Source: a virus
Lineage: Duplodnaviria > Heunggongvirae > Uroviricota > Caudoviricetes
IMG/VR virus record: IMGVR_UViG_2534681699_000016
DNA: 41,425 nt
Strand: one strand, 5' to 3'
Below the pieces are notes generated by a model. That model saw only the letters and a program-made list of their open reading frames with translations, did not search any database and was not told where the DNA came from. A program made the translations under genes and the position numbers. The first letter of the stretch is position 1; each line of letters opens with the position of its first letter. This document shows positions 5,862 through 41,425 of the stretch, piece by piece.

Positions 5862-7115
5862 TTACTTCTCTAATAAACATTGGTCCGATTGTGCTTTAAA
5901 ATAAGCACAAAGCAATATTATGGTGATAAACACAGCAGTCGGAACCGGTTTAGAAAAGAGTATTACATCACTTAGTCCTACTACCAGTAGTGAAAAAAGC
6001 AAGATTAAAATATAAGGTTCTTTAGCAGTTCTTAAGGCATATATGAGTATTGCTGAAAATGCTAAAATTGTTAATACAACTCCAGGAATACCACGCGTTG
6101 ATAACGTATCTATGAGATCGTTATGCAAATGAGAATCTACATAGGGTAAAGCGCCACTCAATCTAGGCTCTTTTTCTTCTAGTTCATGTATTTTTTCCGC
6201 ACGTTTTTCCAGTGATTGTCCTATTGGAGAATATGTTTTTAAGCCAACTTCATACATTGCCAGACGGGCACCGACTGAAGTTCTGGTGTTATCATGCGAA
6301 TAATTAACTAAATCGTTATTTAAGTCATTCATTCTCATAAGCAATGTATCTTTAAAAGAAAATACACCTGCTAATAATGCAATCGTAATAAAACAATATA
6401 ACTTATAATTAATTCGCTTATTAATATAACTATCCATTACGATTAATATTAACGCAAAGAATGGAAACACTAATATGGCTGCACGCGTCTCAGTTACTAT
6501 GACAGCACATAAGCTAAGCATGAAGTTAATTGTATATAATGTTGTTTTATGTCTAAAGTCGGATTTTAAAATGAGAATTGATGCCAGTAAAGAAGGAAAA
6601 AGGATGATGTAGCCTGCTGTTGTAGCGTGGGAAGCTGATAATGCAACACGGTCGACGTTTAAATAGAAATGTTGCCACATGGCATGCGCAAAAAAAAGTA
6701 ACTGCGTTGCCAGGGATGCGAACAGAATTAGTTTCCCAAATTTTATTTTTGTTCTCATCTCATTTTTAGCAAAAAGAACTAAGAAAATAAAAGCGCTACA
6801 CAAGGCAATTTTTCCAGTTTCCATTGGGCCACGATATGCATTGGTATAAACAGAGCCTGAAATTTTATAATGTGAATACCAGATGATATTTACGATACCC
6901 AAAAGACATAATGAGATGAAAATTAACAAAGTAGGATTATTAGTTATTGTTTTTTTTGGTGTCACAAGAAAATACAATGCAGATATAATTCCAGCTGCAT
7001 GAAGAAACTTTGTTGCAACATCATCCCATAAAGACAAAGTCATTAAAGAAAAAATACATAATATGAGAATTAAAGACTTTATACCAGAATTAATTTCATT
7101 CCAACAAAACGACAT
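5862..7115 (-). CDS. waaL: O-antigen ligase (lipid A-core surface polymer ligase)
   Basis: 417-aa highly hydrophobic polytopic membrane protein, AT-rich, at the position waaL occupies at the end of the outer-core operon; sequence is low-conservation as expected for core-type-specific WaaL. Confidence 0.85.
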   Translation of the reverse strand: MSFCWNEINSGIKSLILILCIFSLMTLSLWDDVATKFLHAAGIISALYFLVTPKKTITNNPTLLIFISLCLLGIVNIIWYSHYKISGSVYTNAYRGPMETGKIALCSAFIFLVLFAKNEMRTKIKFGKLILFASLATQLLFFAHAMWQHFYLNVDRVALSASHATTAGYIILFPSLLASILILKSDFRHKTTLYTINFMLSLCAVIVTETRAAILVFPFFALILIVMDSYINKRINYKLYCFITIALLAGVFSFKDTLLMRMNDLNNDLVNYSHDNTRTSVGARLAMYEVGLKTYSPIGQSLEKRAEKIHELEEKEPRLSGALPYVDSHLHNDLIDTLSTRGIPGVVLTILAFSAILIYALRTAKEPYILILLFSLLVVGLSDVILFSKPVPTAVFITIILLCAYFKAQSDQCLLEK

Positions 7116-7160
7116 ATAGTTTCAACCTATGCTACGAGGATGGGTTATTTAATGCAAGAT

Positions 7161-8144
7161 CTAACGTTTATTCTTTTTTCTATTTACCAGTCTTACCATC
7201 CTCCAGATAATATAATTTTTTGATGCTAATATTTTTGCTCGTCTCTTATCTCTCTTGCCAGGAAGATTACAATCTTTTAATTCTTTTTCATTGCTTTCAA
7301 CTAATTGATTCAATTGTTTAAAATCACCATTAAGTAGAACATTCCACAAATAACGAGTTTTATGATAAGCTCTATTTTGACTCAATAATGTATGAATTTC
7401 TTCTTTCCGGTTACCTTTGTATAACTGCATCACAGAAGAGTAGATTTTTTCGTGCACAAATGACTCATGTCGATAATGAGTGATGGTTCTACATGAGTTC
7501 ATTAAGGAATTTTCTCTATAGTTATGCTTATACATATAATATGGAACCGCATACATATCGCATGTAATTAGCAGTCGATAGATAAAATCCAGATCTTCTC
7601 CTAGTCGTAAATCTTCATCAAAAAAAAGATTATTCTCTTCCAGAAGTTGTTTTCTTATAAACAAGCACCCTATATGGAATCTAACCTTTTTATAAAAAAA
7701 GTCGAAAAGTAAAGATCCTTCATTAAACTCTGTATTTATAGGTGAGTAAGTAACACCATTTTTTATATGATGGCCATAAAGCCCACAATAAATGGCATCT
7801 CCTCCCGTCTCATGTTGTCTGGAATACATCTTCAGCAGATAGTTAGGATCTATCTCATCATCATCATCCATAAAACATATAAACTGTCCTTGCGCCTTGC
7901 GGATACCTGTATTCCTGGCAGACGAAACACCGCCATTTTCTTTATTGATAATAATTAATCGAGAGTGGGTTAACCCATACTCTCTCAAAACGTTTGATGT
8001 GTTGTCTTTAGAACCATCATTAACAATAACAATTTCAAAATTTGGGTAAGTTTGTTTTTCTAATTTCGTTAGAGTTTCAGTAATGTAATCAGATGAATTA
8101 TACGTCGGTATTATTATGGATACTAAAGGGTAATCATTGCTCAT
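7161..8144 (-). CDS. waaV: Family-2 glycosyltransferase, R1-core-type beta-glucosyltransferase WaaV-like
   Basis: 327-aa ORF with GT-A N-terminal motif SIIIPTYNSSDYI, VNDGSKDNT and an acidic DDDD (DXD-like) motif; located between waaW and waaL as in R1-type loci. Confidence 0.75.
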   Translation of the reverse strand: MSNDYPLVSIIIPTYNSSDYITETLTKLEKQTYPNFEIVIVNDGSKDNTSNVLREYGLTHSRLIIINKENGGVSSARNTGIRKAQGQFICFMDDDDEIDPNYLLKMYSRQHETGGDAIYCGLYGHHIKNGVTYSPINTEFNEGSLLFDFFYKKVRFHIGCLFIRKQLLEENNLFFDEDLRLGEDLDFIYRLLITCDMYAVPYYMYKHNYRENSLMNSCRTITHYRHESFVHEKIYSSVMQLYKGNRKEEIHTLLSQNRAYHKTRYLWNVLLNGDFKQLNQLVESNEKELKDCNLPGKRDKRRAKILASKNYIIWRMVRLVNRKKNKR

Positions 8145-8228
8145 CGTGTTCTCTTGCCTGAACTAATAAAATATGATAGTACTCATCCTTAATTATTATT
8201 GTAACTCAGACATCCATGATTTTTATTA

Positions 8229-9254
8229 TTACCCAAATGGTTTTCTTTTATACTTATTTAATTTAAATTTAATGAAGTAAATAAAAGCGTTAAACGTATC
8301 ACCATTTTTCTTTGCATGTTGATATTTCACTTGATACTGCTTTTCATTCGTGGCTGGAATAAACGCCACATCATTCCAGCAAGAAGCCTGATAAGCCTCA
8401 TTAAAATAGTTCTGGCAGGGATAATTCGTCCAGTCGTTCCAGGGCTTCGTTACGCCAACATAATGAATCAGCTTAGTATCATCGGTAATGGTCTTTTTAT
8501 AATCTTCATCGCTTTTATTTTTTAACTCATAATCGATGCCATAAAAGCAATCATAATCGCCGCTAATAAAAATACAATGACCAAAAAACAGAATATTTAA
8601 AATATCCTGATCAAGGCATTTATACTTCGTGTGCTGCGGGTCACTTGCCAGCATAGCAATGGCTTTATTCATAAAATCATTTTTCGCCCATGCTTCAAGC
8701 TGCAGATATACTACACCGGCGTTGAAATAATTCCCTGGAAGTCCCTCTATAGCCAGACGCTTCGCTGGTTTTTCCTGCATAAAAGGCACATCTTTAATAA
8801 CAGCTGCAAACTTATCCCCATCAAAATTAATATCAAGCAATCCAGCTAATGAGCCTTTACAGATGACATCAGCATCGATATATAACAGATTTTCAATAGT
8901 TTCACTCAGATACTGGAACGCAACTAAACGGAAGAATGTTGCATAAGACCACTGTTTCAGGCTGGGGAAGATATCAATAAAGGCATTGGAGACTTTATAA
9001 ATTCTTACTTCAACGTTAGCATTTTTGCTGGTAAAAGCATTAACACGTTGTAGATAATCTTCATCAATGTAGTCGGTAAAGAGATGAAACTTAACCGCAA
9101 GGTCCGGGTTATGCATAACAACTGATTGCATAGATACTGCCGCACCAAATAAAAAGTTACGGTCAATACCGTAAGCGATATTTAACACACGATCGGTGTT
9201 AGCAATTTCCCCAGAGACAGCGACTTCAGTAATACTCTCAGCTAATAAATCCAT
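8229..9254 (-). CDS. waaW: Family-8 LPS alpha-1,2-glycosyltransferase (R1 outer core, WaaW-like)
   Basis: 341-aa ORF sharing GT8 motifs with the two paralogs downstream (NIAYGIDRNFLFGAAVS, YIDADV, FNAGVVY, LIHYVGVTKPW). Confidence 0.75.
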   Translation of the reverse strand: MDLLAESITEVAVSGEIANTDRVLNIAYGIDRNFLFGAAVSMQSVVMHNPDLAVKFHLFTDYIDEDYLQRVNAFTSKNANVEVRIYKVSNAFIDIFPSLKQWSYATFFRLVAFQYLSETIENLLYIDADVICKGSLAGLLDINFDGDKFAAVIKDVPFMQEKPAKRLAIEGLPGNYFNAGVVYLQLEAWAKNDFMNKAIAMLASDPQHTKYKCLDQDILNILFFGHCIFISGDYDCFYGIDYELKNKSDEDYKKTITDDTKLIHYVGVTKPWNDWTNYPCQNYFNEAYQASCWNDVAFIPATNEKQYQVKYQHAKKNGDTFNAFIYFIKFKLNKYKRKPFG

Positions 9255-9279
9255 GTTGGTTCCGTTTTGACTGTGTGGT

Positions 9280-9972
9280 TTACGCTTTGCCTTTTAATTT
9301 TTTAATAAATTTGCGTAGTTTGGTTCTGTAGATTACTGAATAGTAGCCATAATCTTTTATTTCGTTGGCAATACCCAGGTGACGTTCCATGGCCAGACGA
9401 TCACGAGCTTTACGCTCTGCCGTACAGCTTTTACCGGATAGGTCAATTATCCTGACACCATCTTTACTAACGATAAAATTACCCCGGTGTGGGTCGCCCG
9501 ATAGCATATTTAAGGCATGCAATTTTTCCATTGAAGCCTTAATTTCTGCTTTAACATTTTCTGGAATAATCGGCATATCATTGAGCTCTACGCCCTCGAC
9601 ATACTCGATAAGCATGATAAAAACACTGGCATAGTTGAAAATTTTACGCTCAGCCAGAAAATAAAAATCATTAGGAAAAGTAAGACCTGCACTTCTGACA
9701 CGATCGGTTTCAACGATCAAATTCTGATAGTAGTCACCTTTTACAAAAGATTTTAAAAAACGTTCATTCCTTTTCGTTTTCGGAGCAAAGACTTTAAAAA
9801 CATAGCGACCATATTTCGTATCAATCAACGATACTTTGGTATCATCAATATTACGTAATACTTTTACTGTTTTAAAATTATAGGCCGGTATTTCATCAAA
9901 GATTTCTTTATATTTATTATCATTATCTTTGTAATAAAATGAGAAGCCGCGATAACGTATACTTGTAATCAT
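9280..9972 (-). CDS. waaY: LPS core heptose II kinase
   Basis: 230-aa ORF between two GT8 genes; contains kinase catalytic-loop-like motif GDPHRGNFIV; size and position match waaY. Confidence 0.8.
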   Translation of the reverse strand: MITSIRYRGFSFYYKDNDNKYKEIFDEIPAYNFKTVKVLRNIDDTKVSLIDTKYGRYVFKVFAPKTKRNERFLKSFVKGDYYQNLIVETDRVRSAGLTFPNDFYFLAERKIFNYASVFIMLIEYVEGVELNDMPIIPENVKAEIKASMEKLHALNMLSGDPHRGNFIVSKDGVRIIDLSGKSCTAERKARDRLAMERHLGIANEIKDYGYYSVIYRTKLRKFIKKLKGKA

Positions 9973-9981
9973 AAGAGTAAT

Positions 9982-10977
9982 TTATTTCTTAAGCTTGTAC
10001 TTAATTAATGAAGTTATGCCTTTTATATACTCACCATGGGCAAACAGATGCTTATATTGTTTCTGCATTTCTGCAACAGTCCGCGCCTCTTTAAGAGGAT
10101 ATTTCTTCCAGGGAGATTGTTCACGCGCGATATTAAAGTATGATGCAGACGGATATCCAGCCCAGCTATGCCATGGTTTAGTTATCCCTGTATAGTGAAT
10201 CAATACTGTTTTATCGGTAATGGTTTGCTGAAACTTTCGATGACTACGATCATGAAGTTCATTTTTCAGGGTATAAATAGTATCAAAATCCTTCCCGAGG
10301 TAGATATTATTCATATTAAATGCGATATTCAACGCATCCTGATCTAAATATTTAAGAGAGCCATATTTAGTTTCCCCTCGTAAAAGCTTGAGTAAATACG
10401 GTGTCAAATTTGCTTCATGCCATTTTTTAAGATTGACATAGATAACGCCTGCATTGAAATAACGTCCATTCATTTCGGGAATGTTAAGGCGTTTTGCACA
10501 TGCCGCCTGCGTACTATCATTGTCAGGAATGACCGCAGCAAACTCATCTTTAAATATAATTTCTGTGAGAGGTTTCAGGCTTCCTTTACAAACAACATCG
10601 GCATCCAGATACAGCAGTGTGGAAATACTTTCACTCAGATATTCAAAAGACAATACCCTGAAGTATGTCGCGTACGACCAAAACTGTGACGTCGGCAGAT
10701 CAGCAAAGTATTTGGGGTCAATTAAATATACAATAATTGAGGTATTAAATTGTTTTGCTGTTTCATTAAATGACTTTAAATAATCATCATCCACATAATC
10801 AGTGAAAACATGAAAGACAAAATTAATATCTGAATTATTAATCAAAACGGAAGAAATTGAAACGCCAGCACCATACAAAAAATTCTTATCGATACCGTAG
10901 GAAACATTTAGCTCTGGGGCGTTTTCTTTTTTATTATCTGCTAAATACGAAAACCGTTCTTTTATAAATTCATTCAT
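9982..10977 (-). CDS. waaT: Family-8 LPS alpha-1,2-galactosyltransferase (R1 outer core, WaaT-like)
   Basis: 331-aa ORF with GT8 motifs (NVSYGIDKNFLYGAGVS, YLDADV, FNAGVIY, LIHYTGITKPW); position between waaO and waaY. Confidence 0.75.
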   Translation of the reverse strand: MNEFIKERFSYLADNKKENAPELNVSYGIDKNFLYGAGVSISSVLINNSDINFVFHVFTDYVDDDYLKSFNETAKQFNTSIIVYLIDPKYFADLPTSQFWSYATYFRVLSFEYLSESISTLLYLDADVVCKGSLKPLTEIIFKDEFAAVIPDNDSTQAACAKRLNIPEMNGRYFNAGVIYVNLKKWHEANLTPYLLKLLRGETKYGSLKYLDQDALNIAFNMNNIYLGKDFDTIYTLKNELHDRSHRKFQQTITDKTVLIHYTGITKPWHSWAGYPSASYFNIAREQSPWKKYPLKEARTVAEMQKQYKHLFAHGEYIKGITSLIKYKLKK

Positions 10978-10993
10978 TTAACTTTTCTCAATT

Positions 10994-12010
10994 TCATTTT
11001 ATTATCTTTAAATAAAAATAATAAATATAATTCATTATCCCGTTAATTGGTTTATTTTGTTTAAAATTATGCTTGGCGCAATAACGAGCATAGTTTGAGT
11101 TAACTGGCCGCATTAACGGTTCATTTTTCCAGGGCGATGCCTCTTTGACTTTGATAAAAGGTCGCGCACTTGGATAACCGGCCCAGTAATGCCAGGGTTT
11201 TGTCGGGCCGACATAATGAATTAATACGGTTTCATCATTAATTGGACAAACAAATGATTTTTTTAATTCATAATTTAAACTAAATTGCGTATTGTATTTA
11301 GCATCAATGAATTTAACTTTCCCTGACAGGATAAGATTAAGTATATCTTGATCCATATAGGTTAAACGGGAAACGACGGCTTTATCAGCAAGCATCGACA
11401 TCGCTTTAGCAGAAACGGACTCCTGCGCCCACGCTAGTGTATTAATTAACAGGACACCTGAATTAAAGTAACCCTTTTCAAGTTCATTACACTGCAGACT
11501 TTGACCCCGTAACGACCACCAGTTAGCATCGCGTTCAGTAACAACAGCAGCAATGTTATTGGCAAGATCCATTGTTATCAGCGGCTTTAAGTTTCCCTGA
11601 CAGGCGATATCAGCATCCAGGTAAAGAACCTTATCTTGTTGATCAATAAAGTAATCTGCAATTACAAAACGGAAATACATGGCAATAGACCAATTTTTGG
11701 TCGTCGGTAATGCCTTAAGCCGTTCACAATTTACCAGATGGATCTGGATACAGGTACGATAGCTTTTCGCCAATTGGGCTAAACGCTGGATATCGGCTTC
11801 AGGGATATCATCAATAAAAACGTGGAAAACAAAACTCACGTCGTTGTTATGTAACAAAACTGACGTGATTGAAACACCACAACCAAAAAGAAAGTTTTTA
11901 TCAATGCCATAAGCAACATGGAATGATGATGCCACTGACGCCGCTGGCCTTTCATCGAAGATGATTGTCTTAGTGATCATCTCTTGTGGATTAAAATAGT
12001 GGGCACTCAT
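10994..12010 (-). CDS. waaO: Family-8 LPS alpha-1,3-glucosyltransferase (WaaO/WaaI-like)
   Basis: 338-aa ORF with GT8 motifs (HVAYGIDKNFLFGCGVS, YLDADI, FNSGVLL, LIHYVGPTKPW); immediately downstream of waaP. Confidence 0.8.
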   Translation of the reverse strand: MSAHYFNPQEMITKTIIFDERPAASVASSFHVAYGIDKNFLFGCGVSITSVLLHNNDVSFVFHVFIDDIPEADIQRLAQLAKSYRTCIQIHLVNCERLKALPTTKNWSIAMYFRFVIADYFIDQQDKVLYLDADIACQGNLKPLITMDLANNIAAVVTERDANWWSLRGQSLQCNELEKGYFNSGVLLINTLAWAQESVSAKAMSMLADKAVVSRLTYMDQDILNLILSGKVKFIDAKYNTQFSLNYELKKSFVCPINDETVLIHYVGPTKPWHYWAGYPSARPFIKVKEASPWKNEPLMRPVNSNYARYCAKHNFKQNKPINGIMNYIYYFYLKIIK

Positions 12011-12025
12011 ATTTCTCTCCGGAAA

Positions 12026-12823
12026 TTACAACGATTTTCGAATCGTTCTTTCCCTGATTTTTGTGGCTTTTGCTTCTGCTTGCGACAGCAGTCCTTGTTC
12101 CTGCTTGAGAATGTCTTTAAGCGGGGCGGCAAAATACACTTTCATAAACCGCCAGATATCCCGCTGAGTCAGGTCGATATTCATCGAAGAAAAATAAAGC
12201 CCAATAAGATCTTTATCCCGCCAACGACGTGGAACGCGCGTGCGAAGCTGCGCCCGGTGCAGGTCAATTACCGAAATTTTTAACTCCTCTTCCTTACCGG
12301 AAAAAGGCAAGTGCAGCAGGAAATGACAGATATAACAGTCACGGTGGTTAATGCCCGCAGCATGCATATCGCGCACCATCGTCGCGACACGCTTAATAAG
12401 CATACGCTTTACGCGAACATCTGGAGGGTTAGTCGCCCAGTCAGCACAGTAATCTTCCAGACTTATGGTTGGTGTCAGATCTTCGGTAATAATAAATGAA
12501 GTTCTGGTCAGCGGATTCATGCCTTTTTCGCCAAATGCCACCCCATACATAGTATCAACGCCGACATCCCGCAGTCGATGAATCGCATTCCATTCGCGGT
12601 CAGCGCCTAATACTGGCATCCGCAATGAGAGTAAATTTTTGATTATCTCTTTCAGGGTCGTGCCGCGATGCCATTTGAGAAAATAGCTTTTGCCCGCCAT
12701 TTCAAAGCGCAGAGTACGGCGAGTTTCCAGTTCACGAAATACCTCACCCTGCAAGGTTTTAACTTCCTCAAAAGGATCTTTGCCGCGCCATAACGTGGCA
12801 AACGGCTCTTTAAGTTCAACCAT
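12026..12823 (-). CDS. waaP: LPS core heptose I kinase
   Basis: Recognised WaaP sequence ([20 protein letters not shown]..., kinase motif [11 protein letters not shown]); ATG at 12823 chosen over the GTG at 12832 used by the ORF track; overlaps the waaG stop by 8 nt. Confidence 0.9.
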
Positions 12824-13940
12824 CCAGACCACCCGTTATGATATCCGCCGCTTTCTCTGGCAGACTGTATAAATCTTGTGTATCAGCATAATGTCGCGCA
12901 TTTTCCGCCCAGGCCTGGCGCAATGAAGATTGCGTTAACGCTTTGCGTAAAATCTCATTCAATGTTTCCTGGCGGAATGGCTCAACAATAGCCTCGCCGC
13001 AATTGGCCTCGACAATATAATGCGCATAGCCACAAACGGCTGTTGTTAGTACCGGTAATCCTGCAGTAATCGCTTCCAGCAGCACAATTCCCGCCGCTTC
13101 CTGGTAGGCAGGATGCAGTAATAAATCCGCCGCCGCCATTAATTCCGAGACATCGTTGCGCCCCGAGAAGAAGTGAACATTACTGCGCACGCCGCGTTTT
13201 TCTGCCAGTGCCTCAAATTTTCGCGGTTTATCCTGCCCAACAACATATAGCAATGTGTTGTGGCGCAGCGAATCCGGTAACGAAGCAAGTGCTTCAATGG
13301 AACGATCGACACCTTTACGCGTGAAGTCTGAACCGACCTGCAACAATAAATATTGTTGTTCGGTTATTCCATTCTTCTTACGGAAGATTTCACGGCTATT
13401 GGCTGGCTGCTGGCTATATTTACGATCAGGATAAATCCCCGGTGGCAGAATATGAAAACGCTCCGCTTCAGTCTGATAATGTTTCTGGAAATCGGCGATT
13501 TGCTTATCTGTCAGCATCAGCAGCTGTGTCGGCTTACCCTGTTCGAAGGTTGCCCGCTCAAAGGCGGCATAATGGCGATAACGTGACGTCAGGCGATAGA
13601 AAAAGCCTTTCTCCTGCGCTACTTTCTCGGCATAACAAACATCAGCGGCATAATAAACGTCCAGCCCCGGCATTTTGTTGAATCCAACGACTTTATCGAC
13701 GGGATGTTCGCGTAAATGTTTTTGCACCCAGGCAAAATACTCCGCATTGCGCCCGTGATTGGTATGCGATTTAACCGGTACTTTGATCAGTTCAAATACA
13801 TCAGGGCATTCGCCTTCCCACGACTGGGTATAAACCCGAACATGATGACCTCGGGCGGCGACTGTCTGAGCAATACGCATAAAATCGCGCTGCAAACCGC
13901 CAAAGGGAAAATATTTATATAAACAAAAAGCAACGATCAT
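12816..13940 (-). CDS. waaG: LPS glucosyltransferase I (GT4)
   Basis: 374-aa ORF recognised as WaaG; start ATG overlaps the waaQ stop (ATGA). Confidence 0.93.
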
Positions 13941-14995
13941 AACGACGTACCTGTCGTGGAGGAGGGCAGTAATTTATCGACAGCAGCAATGACATCTGCC
14001 GCCGGAATAACCGAAAGATACATCTCATTTCGGTCACGCTGATCGCGCGTTGGCATTTCCCGGTAATCTCCCGCCCAGAATTGAATCATGTTATTTGACC
14101 AGGGACGCCAGAAAATATGGTCTGTCGCACCAAACAGCGATATCAGCGGCGTATTAACTGCTGCGGCAATATGCGCCGGTGCGGAATCAACGCCAATAAA
14201 TAGCTGCGCATGATCGATTAACGCACCAAGTTCCGGGAAGGTCACCTTTCCAGCCAGCGCCGTTACTGGTGGCGTCTGGCATCCCTGCGCAATTTCATTG
14301 ACGCAGGCCAGATCGTCTTTATCTGGGCCGGACGTCAGAACGACTTCATAACCACGAGCATGTAAGGCATCAATCACAGCGGAAAACTTGGCGTTGTCCC
14401 AGCATTTGAAGATTTGCCGCGCCGTAGGTTGGATAACCACATAATTTTGTCCAACACCAGCGTGATCAAGTTCGCGACGCATACGTTTCCAGCTTGCAGG
14501 CGGGTAACTCATGGTTGTCTGCTTCACCAACGAATCAAGTCCCAATGGTGTCAGCACGGATAAGTTACTTTCCACCACATTTCCACCCTGCAACGGCACC
14601 AAATGGGTGAAACTTTTACGCCAAAAAGCAGACTGCCGATGATGATAATCCTGGGAAATTTTCACACGGGCATTTAATAAGCGAACCAGTATAGCAACCA
14701 TCCATTGATCGGTAAGATTGACGATAAGGTCATACTTATTGGCACGTAATACCTTGATGAGATGAAAAAAGTTGGCAATTTTTTCTGAGGCTTTTGCTTT
14801 TTTATTTTTTATGCCGTAGAGCGCGTTAATCTCTGGATTTTCAGACAGGATCGGGATGGTGTCCTGATAAAGCAGCACATCGATTTTTGCGTCAGGGGAA
14901 TTTTTTTTCAGCGAACTAATGACGGGAGTAGTTAATAACATATCCCCATGAAAACGCATCTTAATGAGCAAAATTCTTCGAAATGGCTTATCCAC
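13937..14995 (-). CDS. waaQ: LPS heptosyltransferase III
   Basis: GT9 family ORF, first gene of the long waaQ operon. The ORF-track start at 14993..14995 is a GTG; true start may be this GTG or a downstream in-frame codon (e.g. ATG near 14959), so the 5' end is uncertain. Confidence 0.85.
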   Translation of the reverse strand: MDKPFRRILLIKMRFHGDMLLTTPVISSLKKNSPDAKIDVLLYQDTIPILSENPEINALYGIKNKKAKASEKIANFFHLIKVLRANKYDLIVNLTDQWMVAILVRLLNARVKISQDYHHRQSAFWRKSFTHLVPLQGGNVVESNLSVLTPLGLDSLVKQTTMSYPPASWKRMRRELDHAGVGQNYVVIQPTARQIFKCWDNAKFSAVIDALHARGYEVVLTSGPDKDDLACVNEIAQGCQTPPVTALAGKVTFPELGALIDHAQLFIGVDSAPAHIAAAVNTPLISLFGATDHIFWRPWSNNMIQFWAGDYREMPTRDQRDRNEMYLSVIPAADVIAAVDKLLPSSTTGTSL

Positions 14996-15044
14996 AAGTA
15001 ACTCTTTTTGTTGAGATTATCCGATTAAGGTGAAGCAGAAAAAG

Positions 15045-39773: not shown

Positions 39774-41154
39774 TTACAACGTAATTGTCAGCGCATTCCC
39801 TTGAGGCTTCACCACCAGCCCCTGCTCACTTTCAGCCTGCGAACCGTCTTGCAGACCATTTACTTTCACAACATTGCGCAGGCACAGTGTCCAGTTCTTC
39901 GCCTCGCCCGCACCAGTCACAGTAATCGTGTTGCCAGTACGTGCTGCTTTTAAAGTAAAGATCACCGATCCGTCAGCAGCGGGCACTTCACAGACGGCTT
40001 CATGCCCGTCTTGCAGATTAAAGAGGTGGAATGCCGTGCCTTCGTGCCACACGTAATCGGGACGTTGATCGTTGTTGCCCAGCGCCAGTAGAGTGTTATC
40101 ACGCACATAAACGGGCAGACTCAGGAAGCCGTGCTGCTGTTTATGCCAGCGACTACCGTCGAGTTCATCGTTGTGCCACAGGTGTGTCCAGCGACCTTCC
40201 GGCAGGTAGAACTGCACATCGCCCGCTTCAGTGAACACCGGCGCAACCATCACGTTGTCGCCTAACATGTATTGACGGTCAAGGTAATCACAAGCCGGAT
40301 CGTCCGGGAACTCCATCATCATGGCCCGCATCATCGGCGTACCCCGCGCGTTCGCACGCGCAGCTTCACGATACAGATACGGCATCATGCGGCATTTCAG
40401 TTGCGTGAAGAAGCGCACCACATCACAGGACTCATCATCGTAGGCCCACGGCACACGATAAGATTTGCTACCGTGCAAACGGCTATGGCTGGAGAGCAAA
40501 CCAAACGCGCACCAGCGTTTGTAAACGTGCGCCGGAGCGGTATTTTCAAAGCCGCCGATATCGTGGCTCCAGAAGCCAAAACCTGAAAGGCCAATAGACA
40601 AACCACCGCGCAGGCTTTCCGCCATTGATTCGTAGTTAGCGTAACAATCGCCACCCCAGTGTACCGGGAATTTCTGCGCACCGACGGAGGCCGAGCGGGC
40701 AAACAAGACAGCTTCTTCCTCACCAACGGTGTCCTTGAGCACGTTCCACACCAGTTCGTTGTAGATGTACGCATAATGGTTATGCATTTTCTGCGGATCG
40801 GAACCGTCAAACCACTGAACATCAGTTGGGATACGTTCGCCAAAGTCGGTCTTAAAGCAATCAACGCCCATCGCGACCAGACCTTTCAGTTTGTCGGCGT
40901 ACCATTTGCAGGCATCCGGATTGGTAAAGTCATAAATCGCCAGACCTGGCTGCCATTTATCCCACTGCCATAGCGAACCGTCCGGGCGTTTGAGTAAATA
41001 GCCTTTCTCTTGTAACTCTTTAAAGACGGGGGATTTTTGACCGATATAGGGGTTAATCCAGACGCAGATTTTCAGCCCTTTCGCTTTCAGGCGGCGGATC
41101 ATCCCTTCCGGGTCAGGGAAAGTCAGCGGGTCCCACTCAAAATCGCACCACTGT
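39774..41154 (-). pseudogene. yicI: Alpha-xylosidase (GH31) gene truncated at its 5' end by IS150; only the C-terminal ~459 codons remain contiguous
   Basis: The reading frame runs without a stop from the IS150 boundary (41154) to the stop at 39774; the ORF track reports only the portion from an internal Met (41102). Sequence recognised as the C-terminal part of YicI; the N-terminal ~300 codons are not present between this fragment and the IS. Confidence 0.8.
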
Positions 41155-41425
41155 GTACTGCACCCATTTTGTTGGACGATGAAATGGAATAGCCCCTAAT
41201 ATGTCAAAGCCAAAATACCCTTTTGAAAAGCGCCTTGAAGTCGTGAATCACTACTTCACAACTGATGATGGTTACAGGATCATCTCGGCACGTTTTGGTG
41301 TCCCCCGAACCCAGGTCAGGACATGGGTTGCCCTCTATGAAAAACATGGAGAAAAAGGTTTAATTCCCAAACCTAAAGGCGTTAGTGCTGATCCAGAGTT
41401 GCGTATTAAGGTCGTGAAAGCTGTG
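41155..41425 (+). mobile_element. IS150 (IS3 family), 5' portion only (element continues past window end)
   Basis: Terminal sequence tgtactgcacccattttgttggacgatgaaatggaatagccc recognised as the IS150 left end, followed by the insJ (orfA) start. Confidence 0.8.
41201..41425 (+). CDS. insJ: IS150 OrfA (InsJ), N-terminal 75 codons (3' end outside window)
   Basis: Translation MSKPKYPFEKRLEVVNHYFTTDDGYRIISARFGVPRTQVRTWVALYEKHGEKGLIPKPKGVSADPELRIKVVKAV is a helix-turn-helix OrfA of an IS3-family element; absent from the ORF track because no stop falls inside the window. Confidence 0.85.
   Translation, partial: MSKPKYPFEKRLEVVNHYFTTDDGYRIISARFGVPRTQVRTWVALYEKHGEKGLIPKPKGVSADPELRIKVVKAV

Follow-up and report, generated by a model that had tools for sequence, protein, structure and literature searches.

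Organization of the locus

The stretch of DNA analysed here (the window, 41,425 bp) is the entire contig APXW01000169.1 of assembly GCA_000357425.2, from E. coli P0298942.x; an exact match of the YicH variant that it encodes identified this source. Both ends of the contig lie in insertion sequences, with part of an IS1 copy at 1-270 and part of an IS150 copy at 41154-41425, and the minus-strand reading frame next to the IS150 end encodes the C-terminal part of the alpha-xylosidase YicI (Table 1). A sister contig from GCA_000358815.1 carries 31 nt more of the IS150 element. Because short-read assemblies end at repeats, the contig stops inside IS150, and this copy accounts for the end point of the draft contig.

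At its other end, the contig begins within a copy of IS1; the terminal inverted repeat of this copy reaches to 270 and adjoins the waaH-tdh spacer (junction 270/271). No complete genome matches this IS1 junction exactly, the only matches being composite and non-identical; several complete genomes do possess an IS1 near tdh. The waa (LPS core) cluster at 5862-15000 comprises waaL, a GT2 gene, two GT8 genes, rfaY, waaO, rfaP, waaG, and rfaQ, a gene set unlike that of the K-12 core type.

Table 1. Coordinates of the yicI remnant, the IS150 end, and the sites used for comparison. Positions refer to the window unless another source is named.
Feature	Position	Strand	Remarks
yicI 3' remnant	39774..41153	-	codons Q314-L772 plus TAA stop at 39774-39776
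Longest start-codon ORF in remnant	39774..41102	-	M331-L772, 442 aa; from the ORF list
Asp482 codon, GAT (WGGD motif)	40647..40649	-	read from the window, numbered from the PDB alignment; kept in remnant
Asp416 codon, GAC	40845..40847	-	read from the window, numbered from the PDB alignment; kept in remnant
Insertion junction	41153..41154	.	last yicI base G (sense-strand first base of codon Q314), then T of IS150 TGTACTG
IS150 left end, nt 1-272 of 1443	41154..41425	+	identical to IS150; cut by contig end; opposite orientation to yicI
IS150 left terminal inverted repeat (IRL), ~31 bp	41154..41184	+	from end-to-end comparison of the full 510016 copy
IS150 orfA (insJ), first 75 codons	41201..41425	+	HTH DNA-binding protein, Pfam HTH_28, E = 1.8e-11; runs off the contig
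TGTCG at far junction, 510016	L001 6440-6460		CTGGA expected
TGTCG at far junction, CP025886.1	L009 8476-8520		CTGGA expected
Window-private sites (examples)	14898, 16145, 22255, 29091, 31602, 33663, 37110, 38257		
510016-private sites, matching window	9399, 15677, 15892, 22151, 22602, 27341, 27970, 29665		510016 locus L003
yicI lesions upstream of M331	codons 313, 315, 320, 324, 327		IS150 at codon 313; W315*; W320*; 1-nt deletion at codon 324; 1-nt deletion at codon 327
Independently broken yicI loci (L006-L015), examples	L006 9012-11329; L008 9011-11329; L013 3757-6075; L014 3396-5713		

The yicI remnant

An earlier reading made from the sequence alone (the sequence-only reading) had described the remnant as about 459 codons of a protein of roughly 770 aa, and both figures hold: the minus-strand frame is uninterrupted over exactly 459 codons, and yicI of K-12 (b3656) has 772 codons, for a protein of 772 aa. 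All 459 residues are identical to residues 314-772 of YicI in PDB entries 1WE5, 2F2H, and 1XSI. The Pfam GH31 TIM barrel (PF01055) is matched over profile positions 50-327 of 328 (E = 7e-81), and the GH31 C-terminal domain (PF21365) is matched in full (E = 3e-24). The interrupted gene is thus yicI, encoding a GH31 alpha-xylosidase, as had been proposed. The remnant holds most of the TIM barrel and the C-terminal beta domains. Residues 1-313 are missing, and with them the N-terminal domain and the initial ~49 profile positions of the barrel, so that the earlier reading was correct in placing the loss at the N terminus and put the fraction too low, at a third instead of 40%.

Like the crystallised enzyme (PDB 1WE5, 1XSI-1XSK, and 2F2H), the remnant retains the two catalytic aspartates of YicI, the nucleophile Asp416 and the general acid/base Asp482 (Lovering et al. 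2005, J Biol Chem). Unlike the crystallised enzyme, the frame in the window lacks residues 1-313 and represents a gene fragment only, the full 772-codon frame being broken by IS150 at codon 313/314. The earliest in-frame start codon for the remnant is M331, at 41102. Upstream, the frame continues for 14 open codons within IS150 (GLFHFIVQQNGCST) and then reaches a stop, with no start codon among them, and a minus-strand scan of the IS150 end detected no promoter-like site directed toward the remnant. The matching stretch in strain 510016 is labelled "alpha-xylosidase, incomplete, missing N-terminus" in RefSeq. The remnant is a yicI pseudogene fragment and would not count as a functional member of the YicI group.

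The IS150 element and its junction with yicI

The element adjoining the remnant is IS150, a member of the IS3 family. IS150 transposes by a copy-out/paste-in route and produces an OrfAB transposase via a -1 frameshift. All 272 nt in the window are identical to the IS150 copy of K-12 MG1655 (insJ/insK, NC_000913.3 3720633-3722075), which upholds the earlier identification of the element and corrects its boundary by one base, as IS150 begins at 41154 and not at 41155. The full copy at the yicI site of strain 510016 is identical to the MG1655 copy over all 1443 nt and shares with it the TG...CA inverted repeats, orfA, the A AAA AAG slippery site, and orfB. The two copies differ in location, the K-12 element lying in the hokA/sokA region, and the window holds only the left 272 nt. 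The termini of IS150 are imperfect inverted repeats of the TG...CA form: in the full 510016 copy, 22 of 31 positions of the IRL are complementary to the right end. The IRL begins with TGTACTGCACCC at 41154 and is the only one in the window; the right inverted repeat was read in 510016 as ...GGGGTCAGTACA. In the relatives, complete orfA encodes 173 aa, the slippery site lies at IS position 530, and the orfB frame spans 301 codons with rve/DDE domains. RefSeq names the element in 510016 "IS3-like element IS150 family transposase" and adds the note "programmed frameshift".

A comparison with uninterrupted yicI, as the sequence-only reading had advised, fixes the junction to the base. On the plus strand, the intact gene of K-12 and of the close relative HKUOPY1 reads ...AAAATCGCACCACTG GAAGGCTTTC..., and the window reads ...AAAATCGCACCACTG TGTACTGCACCC... 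at the same site. The last base shared is the G at 41153; in the intact allele CACCACTG is followed at this point by GAAGG. The window was also compared with 510016 here. The exact yicI/IS150 junction was found in one of 5,426 complete RefSeq E. coli genomes, that of strain 510016, and the IS150 segment alone was found in 2,848 genomes at 95% identity or above. The match to the yicI/IS150 junction is not due to chance. The 33-nt junction has no exact match in the GTDB species-representative genomes, and searching the literature for IS150 in combination with yicI yielded no paper.

The interrupted locus in finished relatives

The left junction is common to two finished relatives, strain 510016 (NZ_CP025851.1; human stool, India) and GenBank CP025886.1. 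The window aligns with 510016 over 41,155 nt without gaps at 99.93% identity, the junction included, and the two agree in left junction, orientation, and gene order. They differ by 30 base substitutions, by the IS1 at the far contig end, which is absent at the matching spot in 510016, and by the IS150 sequence of the window stopping at nt 272. We therefore reject the idea that the window is 510016 itself. In RefSeq, both yicI pieces of 510016 are pseudogenes and IS150 is annotated with them (CXX11_RS12085/RS12090/RS12095), so the event is already known as a yicI pseudogene with IS150.

The sequence-only reading had suggested extending beyond 41425 to find the other IS150 end and the 5' portion of yicI, and both are present in the relatives. 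The gene order in 510016 and CP025886.1 is yicH, the yicI 3' part, IS150 (1443 bp, antisense), yicI codons 1-312, yicJ, and selC, with yicJ intact behind the yicI 5' part. Its statement that the 3' fragment is separated from its native upstream context is likewise borne out, as the 5' part and the yicJ-yicI promoter side lie beyond IS150 in these relatives.

A 3-bp target-site duplication, which had also been expected, is where the relatives depart from the prediction. Such a duplication is a trace left by integration and not a feature of the element itself. IS150 normally generates one (PMC4300727), and the net gain in 510016 and CP025886.1 is 1443+3 nt, as expected. Their flanks read ...CACCACTG [IS] TGTCGAGGC..., compared with ...CACCACTGGAAGGC... 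in the intact allele, and no clean 3-bp direct repeat, including a repeat of CTG, is found at the ends of IS150 in either genome. The far flank, which lies outside the window, is TGTCGAGGCTTTC where CTGGAAGGCTTTC is expected, with TGTCG in place of CTGGA; on the sense strand, TCG ACA and then IS150 stand in place of the F313 codon (TTC). TGTCG is found at this position in none of the other 5,421 genomes possessing the region, all of which match from the sixth base on. Duplications of 2, 3, or 4 bp, the IS tips, and the opposite flank were considered as sources of TGTCG, and no model fits.

New IS150 insertions detected with breseq in experimental E. coli populations (PMC4300727) resemble the yicI insertion in the element involved, in disruption of a gene, and in a net addition of three target-side bases. 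Those cases typically show a clean 3-bp duplication, whereas the far yicI junction shows five non-matching bases. According to the same paper, the margins of elements can have a few bases too many or too few (PMC4300727), and the reference IS150 copy of K-12 likewise lacks a flanking repeat. Since the canonical 3-bp repeat is absent from the right junction of the relatives, the integration was not of the textbook kind, and the repeat-less junction could be a record of non-canonical IS150 integration.

A rare marker shared by a small lineage

The 41153/41154 junction is a rare, base-exact marker of a small lineage comprising the P0298942.x drafts, 510016, and CP025886.1; its rarity follows from its presence in one of the 5,426 complete genomes. 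The earlier reading had called the insertion a strain-specific event and a useful lineage marker. The second description stands, and since the carriers are several related isolates it fits better than the first.

We examined the relationship of the carriers over 32 kb by comparing the window and 510016 with strain HKUOPY1, which lacks the insertion. The three are related as a star, with private differences numbering 17 (window), 8 (510016), and 8 (HKUOPY1), and none of the sites unites the two carriers of the insertion, so this region alone is no proof of a carrier clade. Such a star would be in line with independent hits at one site, a hot spot, in the window strain and in 510016/CP025886.1, in which case the junction would not mark common descent, and IS150 has been reported to have insertion preferences (PMC10379815). 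Against this, the carriers agree to the base in where the element lies and which way it points, the junction is found in a single finished genome of the 5,426 surveyed, and about half of the window-private differences resemble sequencing artefacts. The 17 window-private differences lie in 9154-41153, and eight of them are A:T>C:G changes in which each T>G is preceded by G, often by GG; GGT>GGG is a known short-read artefact. Most of the 17 are nonsynonymous in conserved genes (rpoZ V39G, trmH V73G, xanP W90R and V204G, yicH S82R, dut K77N). The sister draft contig differs from the window at five positions in 13.4 kb, all of them G[T>G] sites of this type. The window-private A:T>C:G changes are thus probably GGT>GGG artefacts in these drafts from 2013. 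We consider a mutT-type mutator a less likely source of these changes, because every T>G follows G and the sister drafts differ only at such sites. When the artefact sites are removed, the window moves closer to 510016. The carriers, judging from strain naming, also appear to come from one collection of diarrhoea-study isolates. Taking these points together, we consider repeated hits at a hot spot unlikely and common descent of the carriers the simpler reading.

The differences private to 510016 in the same 32-kb comparison have a skewed spectrum of their own, all eight being G:C>A:T transitions.

A probable simple insertion and its predicted consequences

In the two finished relatives, a full IS150 is followed directly by yicI codons 1-312, and the event there was therefore a simple insertion; from this we infer a simple insertion in the source strain of P0298942.x as well, whose contig ends within IS150. 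The IS150 at 41154 might instead mark a larger deletion or inversion through two IS150 copies, leaving the yicI 5' part and yicJ non-adjacent or lost. The source contig stops within IS150, its opposite end lies in an insertion sequence too (IS1), and the eight IS150 copies of 510016 would be able to recombine. However, draft contigs break at any repeat, rearranged or not, and in the two finished genomes that share this left junction the element is followed immediately by the yicI 5' part, as in a simple insertion, which makes a rearrangement very unlikely in our judgement. That the junction is an assembly artefact, a yicI read joined to IS150 reads at a chimeric contig end, is barely credible: the source is a 2013 short-read draft whose private base differences resemble systematic sequencing errors, but the sister draft contig has the identical junction, and so do two finished genomes that were assembled independently.

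We are therefore highly confident that an IS150 insertion in codon 313 of yicI, in the opposite orientation, cut the GH31 alpha-xylosidase within its barrel, with a predicted loss of its activity. In the sequence of events we propose, an IS150 copy would have entered codon 313 antisense to the gene, dividing YicI within the (beta/alpha)8 barrel. The 5' piece, encoding residues 1-312 (the N-terminal domain together with the beginning of the barrel), would still be joined to yicJ and the operon promoter; in the relatives, it ends with S-T, from the two altered junction codons, and nine IS-encoded codons, reaching a stop 11 codons on. The 3' piece, encoding residues 314-772 with Asp416 and Asp482, would be left with neither a promoter nor a start codon before M331, and without the first barrel strands. 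Neither piece would be expected to fold as an active hexameric enzyme. From the sequence we infer that alpha-xylosidase activity is lost completely and that yicJ, the transporter gene upstream, is intact. Because yicI is the last gene in its operon and yicH converges on it, no polar effect would be expected and the downstream gene should be unaffected.

Repeated loss of yicI in E. coli

The 442-aa ORF beginning at M331 was called on 104 contigs. Reading ten of these loci shows that it arises from at least five independent upstream lesions (Table 1), including IS150 at codon 313, nonsense changes, and single-nucleotide deletions. These lesions cluster in a 17-codon stretch near codons 313-330, a pattern that is due at least in part to sampling, as only lesions just upstream of M331 yield the 442-aa ORF. 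The independently broken loci show that yicI decays repeatedly in E. coli. That this repeated loss reflects selection rather than drift we regard as improbable; if loss of yicI were enriched in gut or diarrhoeagenic lineages, it would suggest that alpha-xyloside hydrolysis or uptake is costly in those niches.

In conclusion, the yicI/IS150 junction is an ordinary insertion sequence knockout of a dispensable sugar-hydrolase gene, of a kind that is routine in E. coli, and useful only for typing. For the strains that carry it, the insertion predicts that alpha-xylosidase activity is lost and the YicJ transporter is kept.
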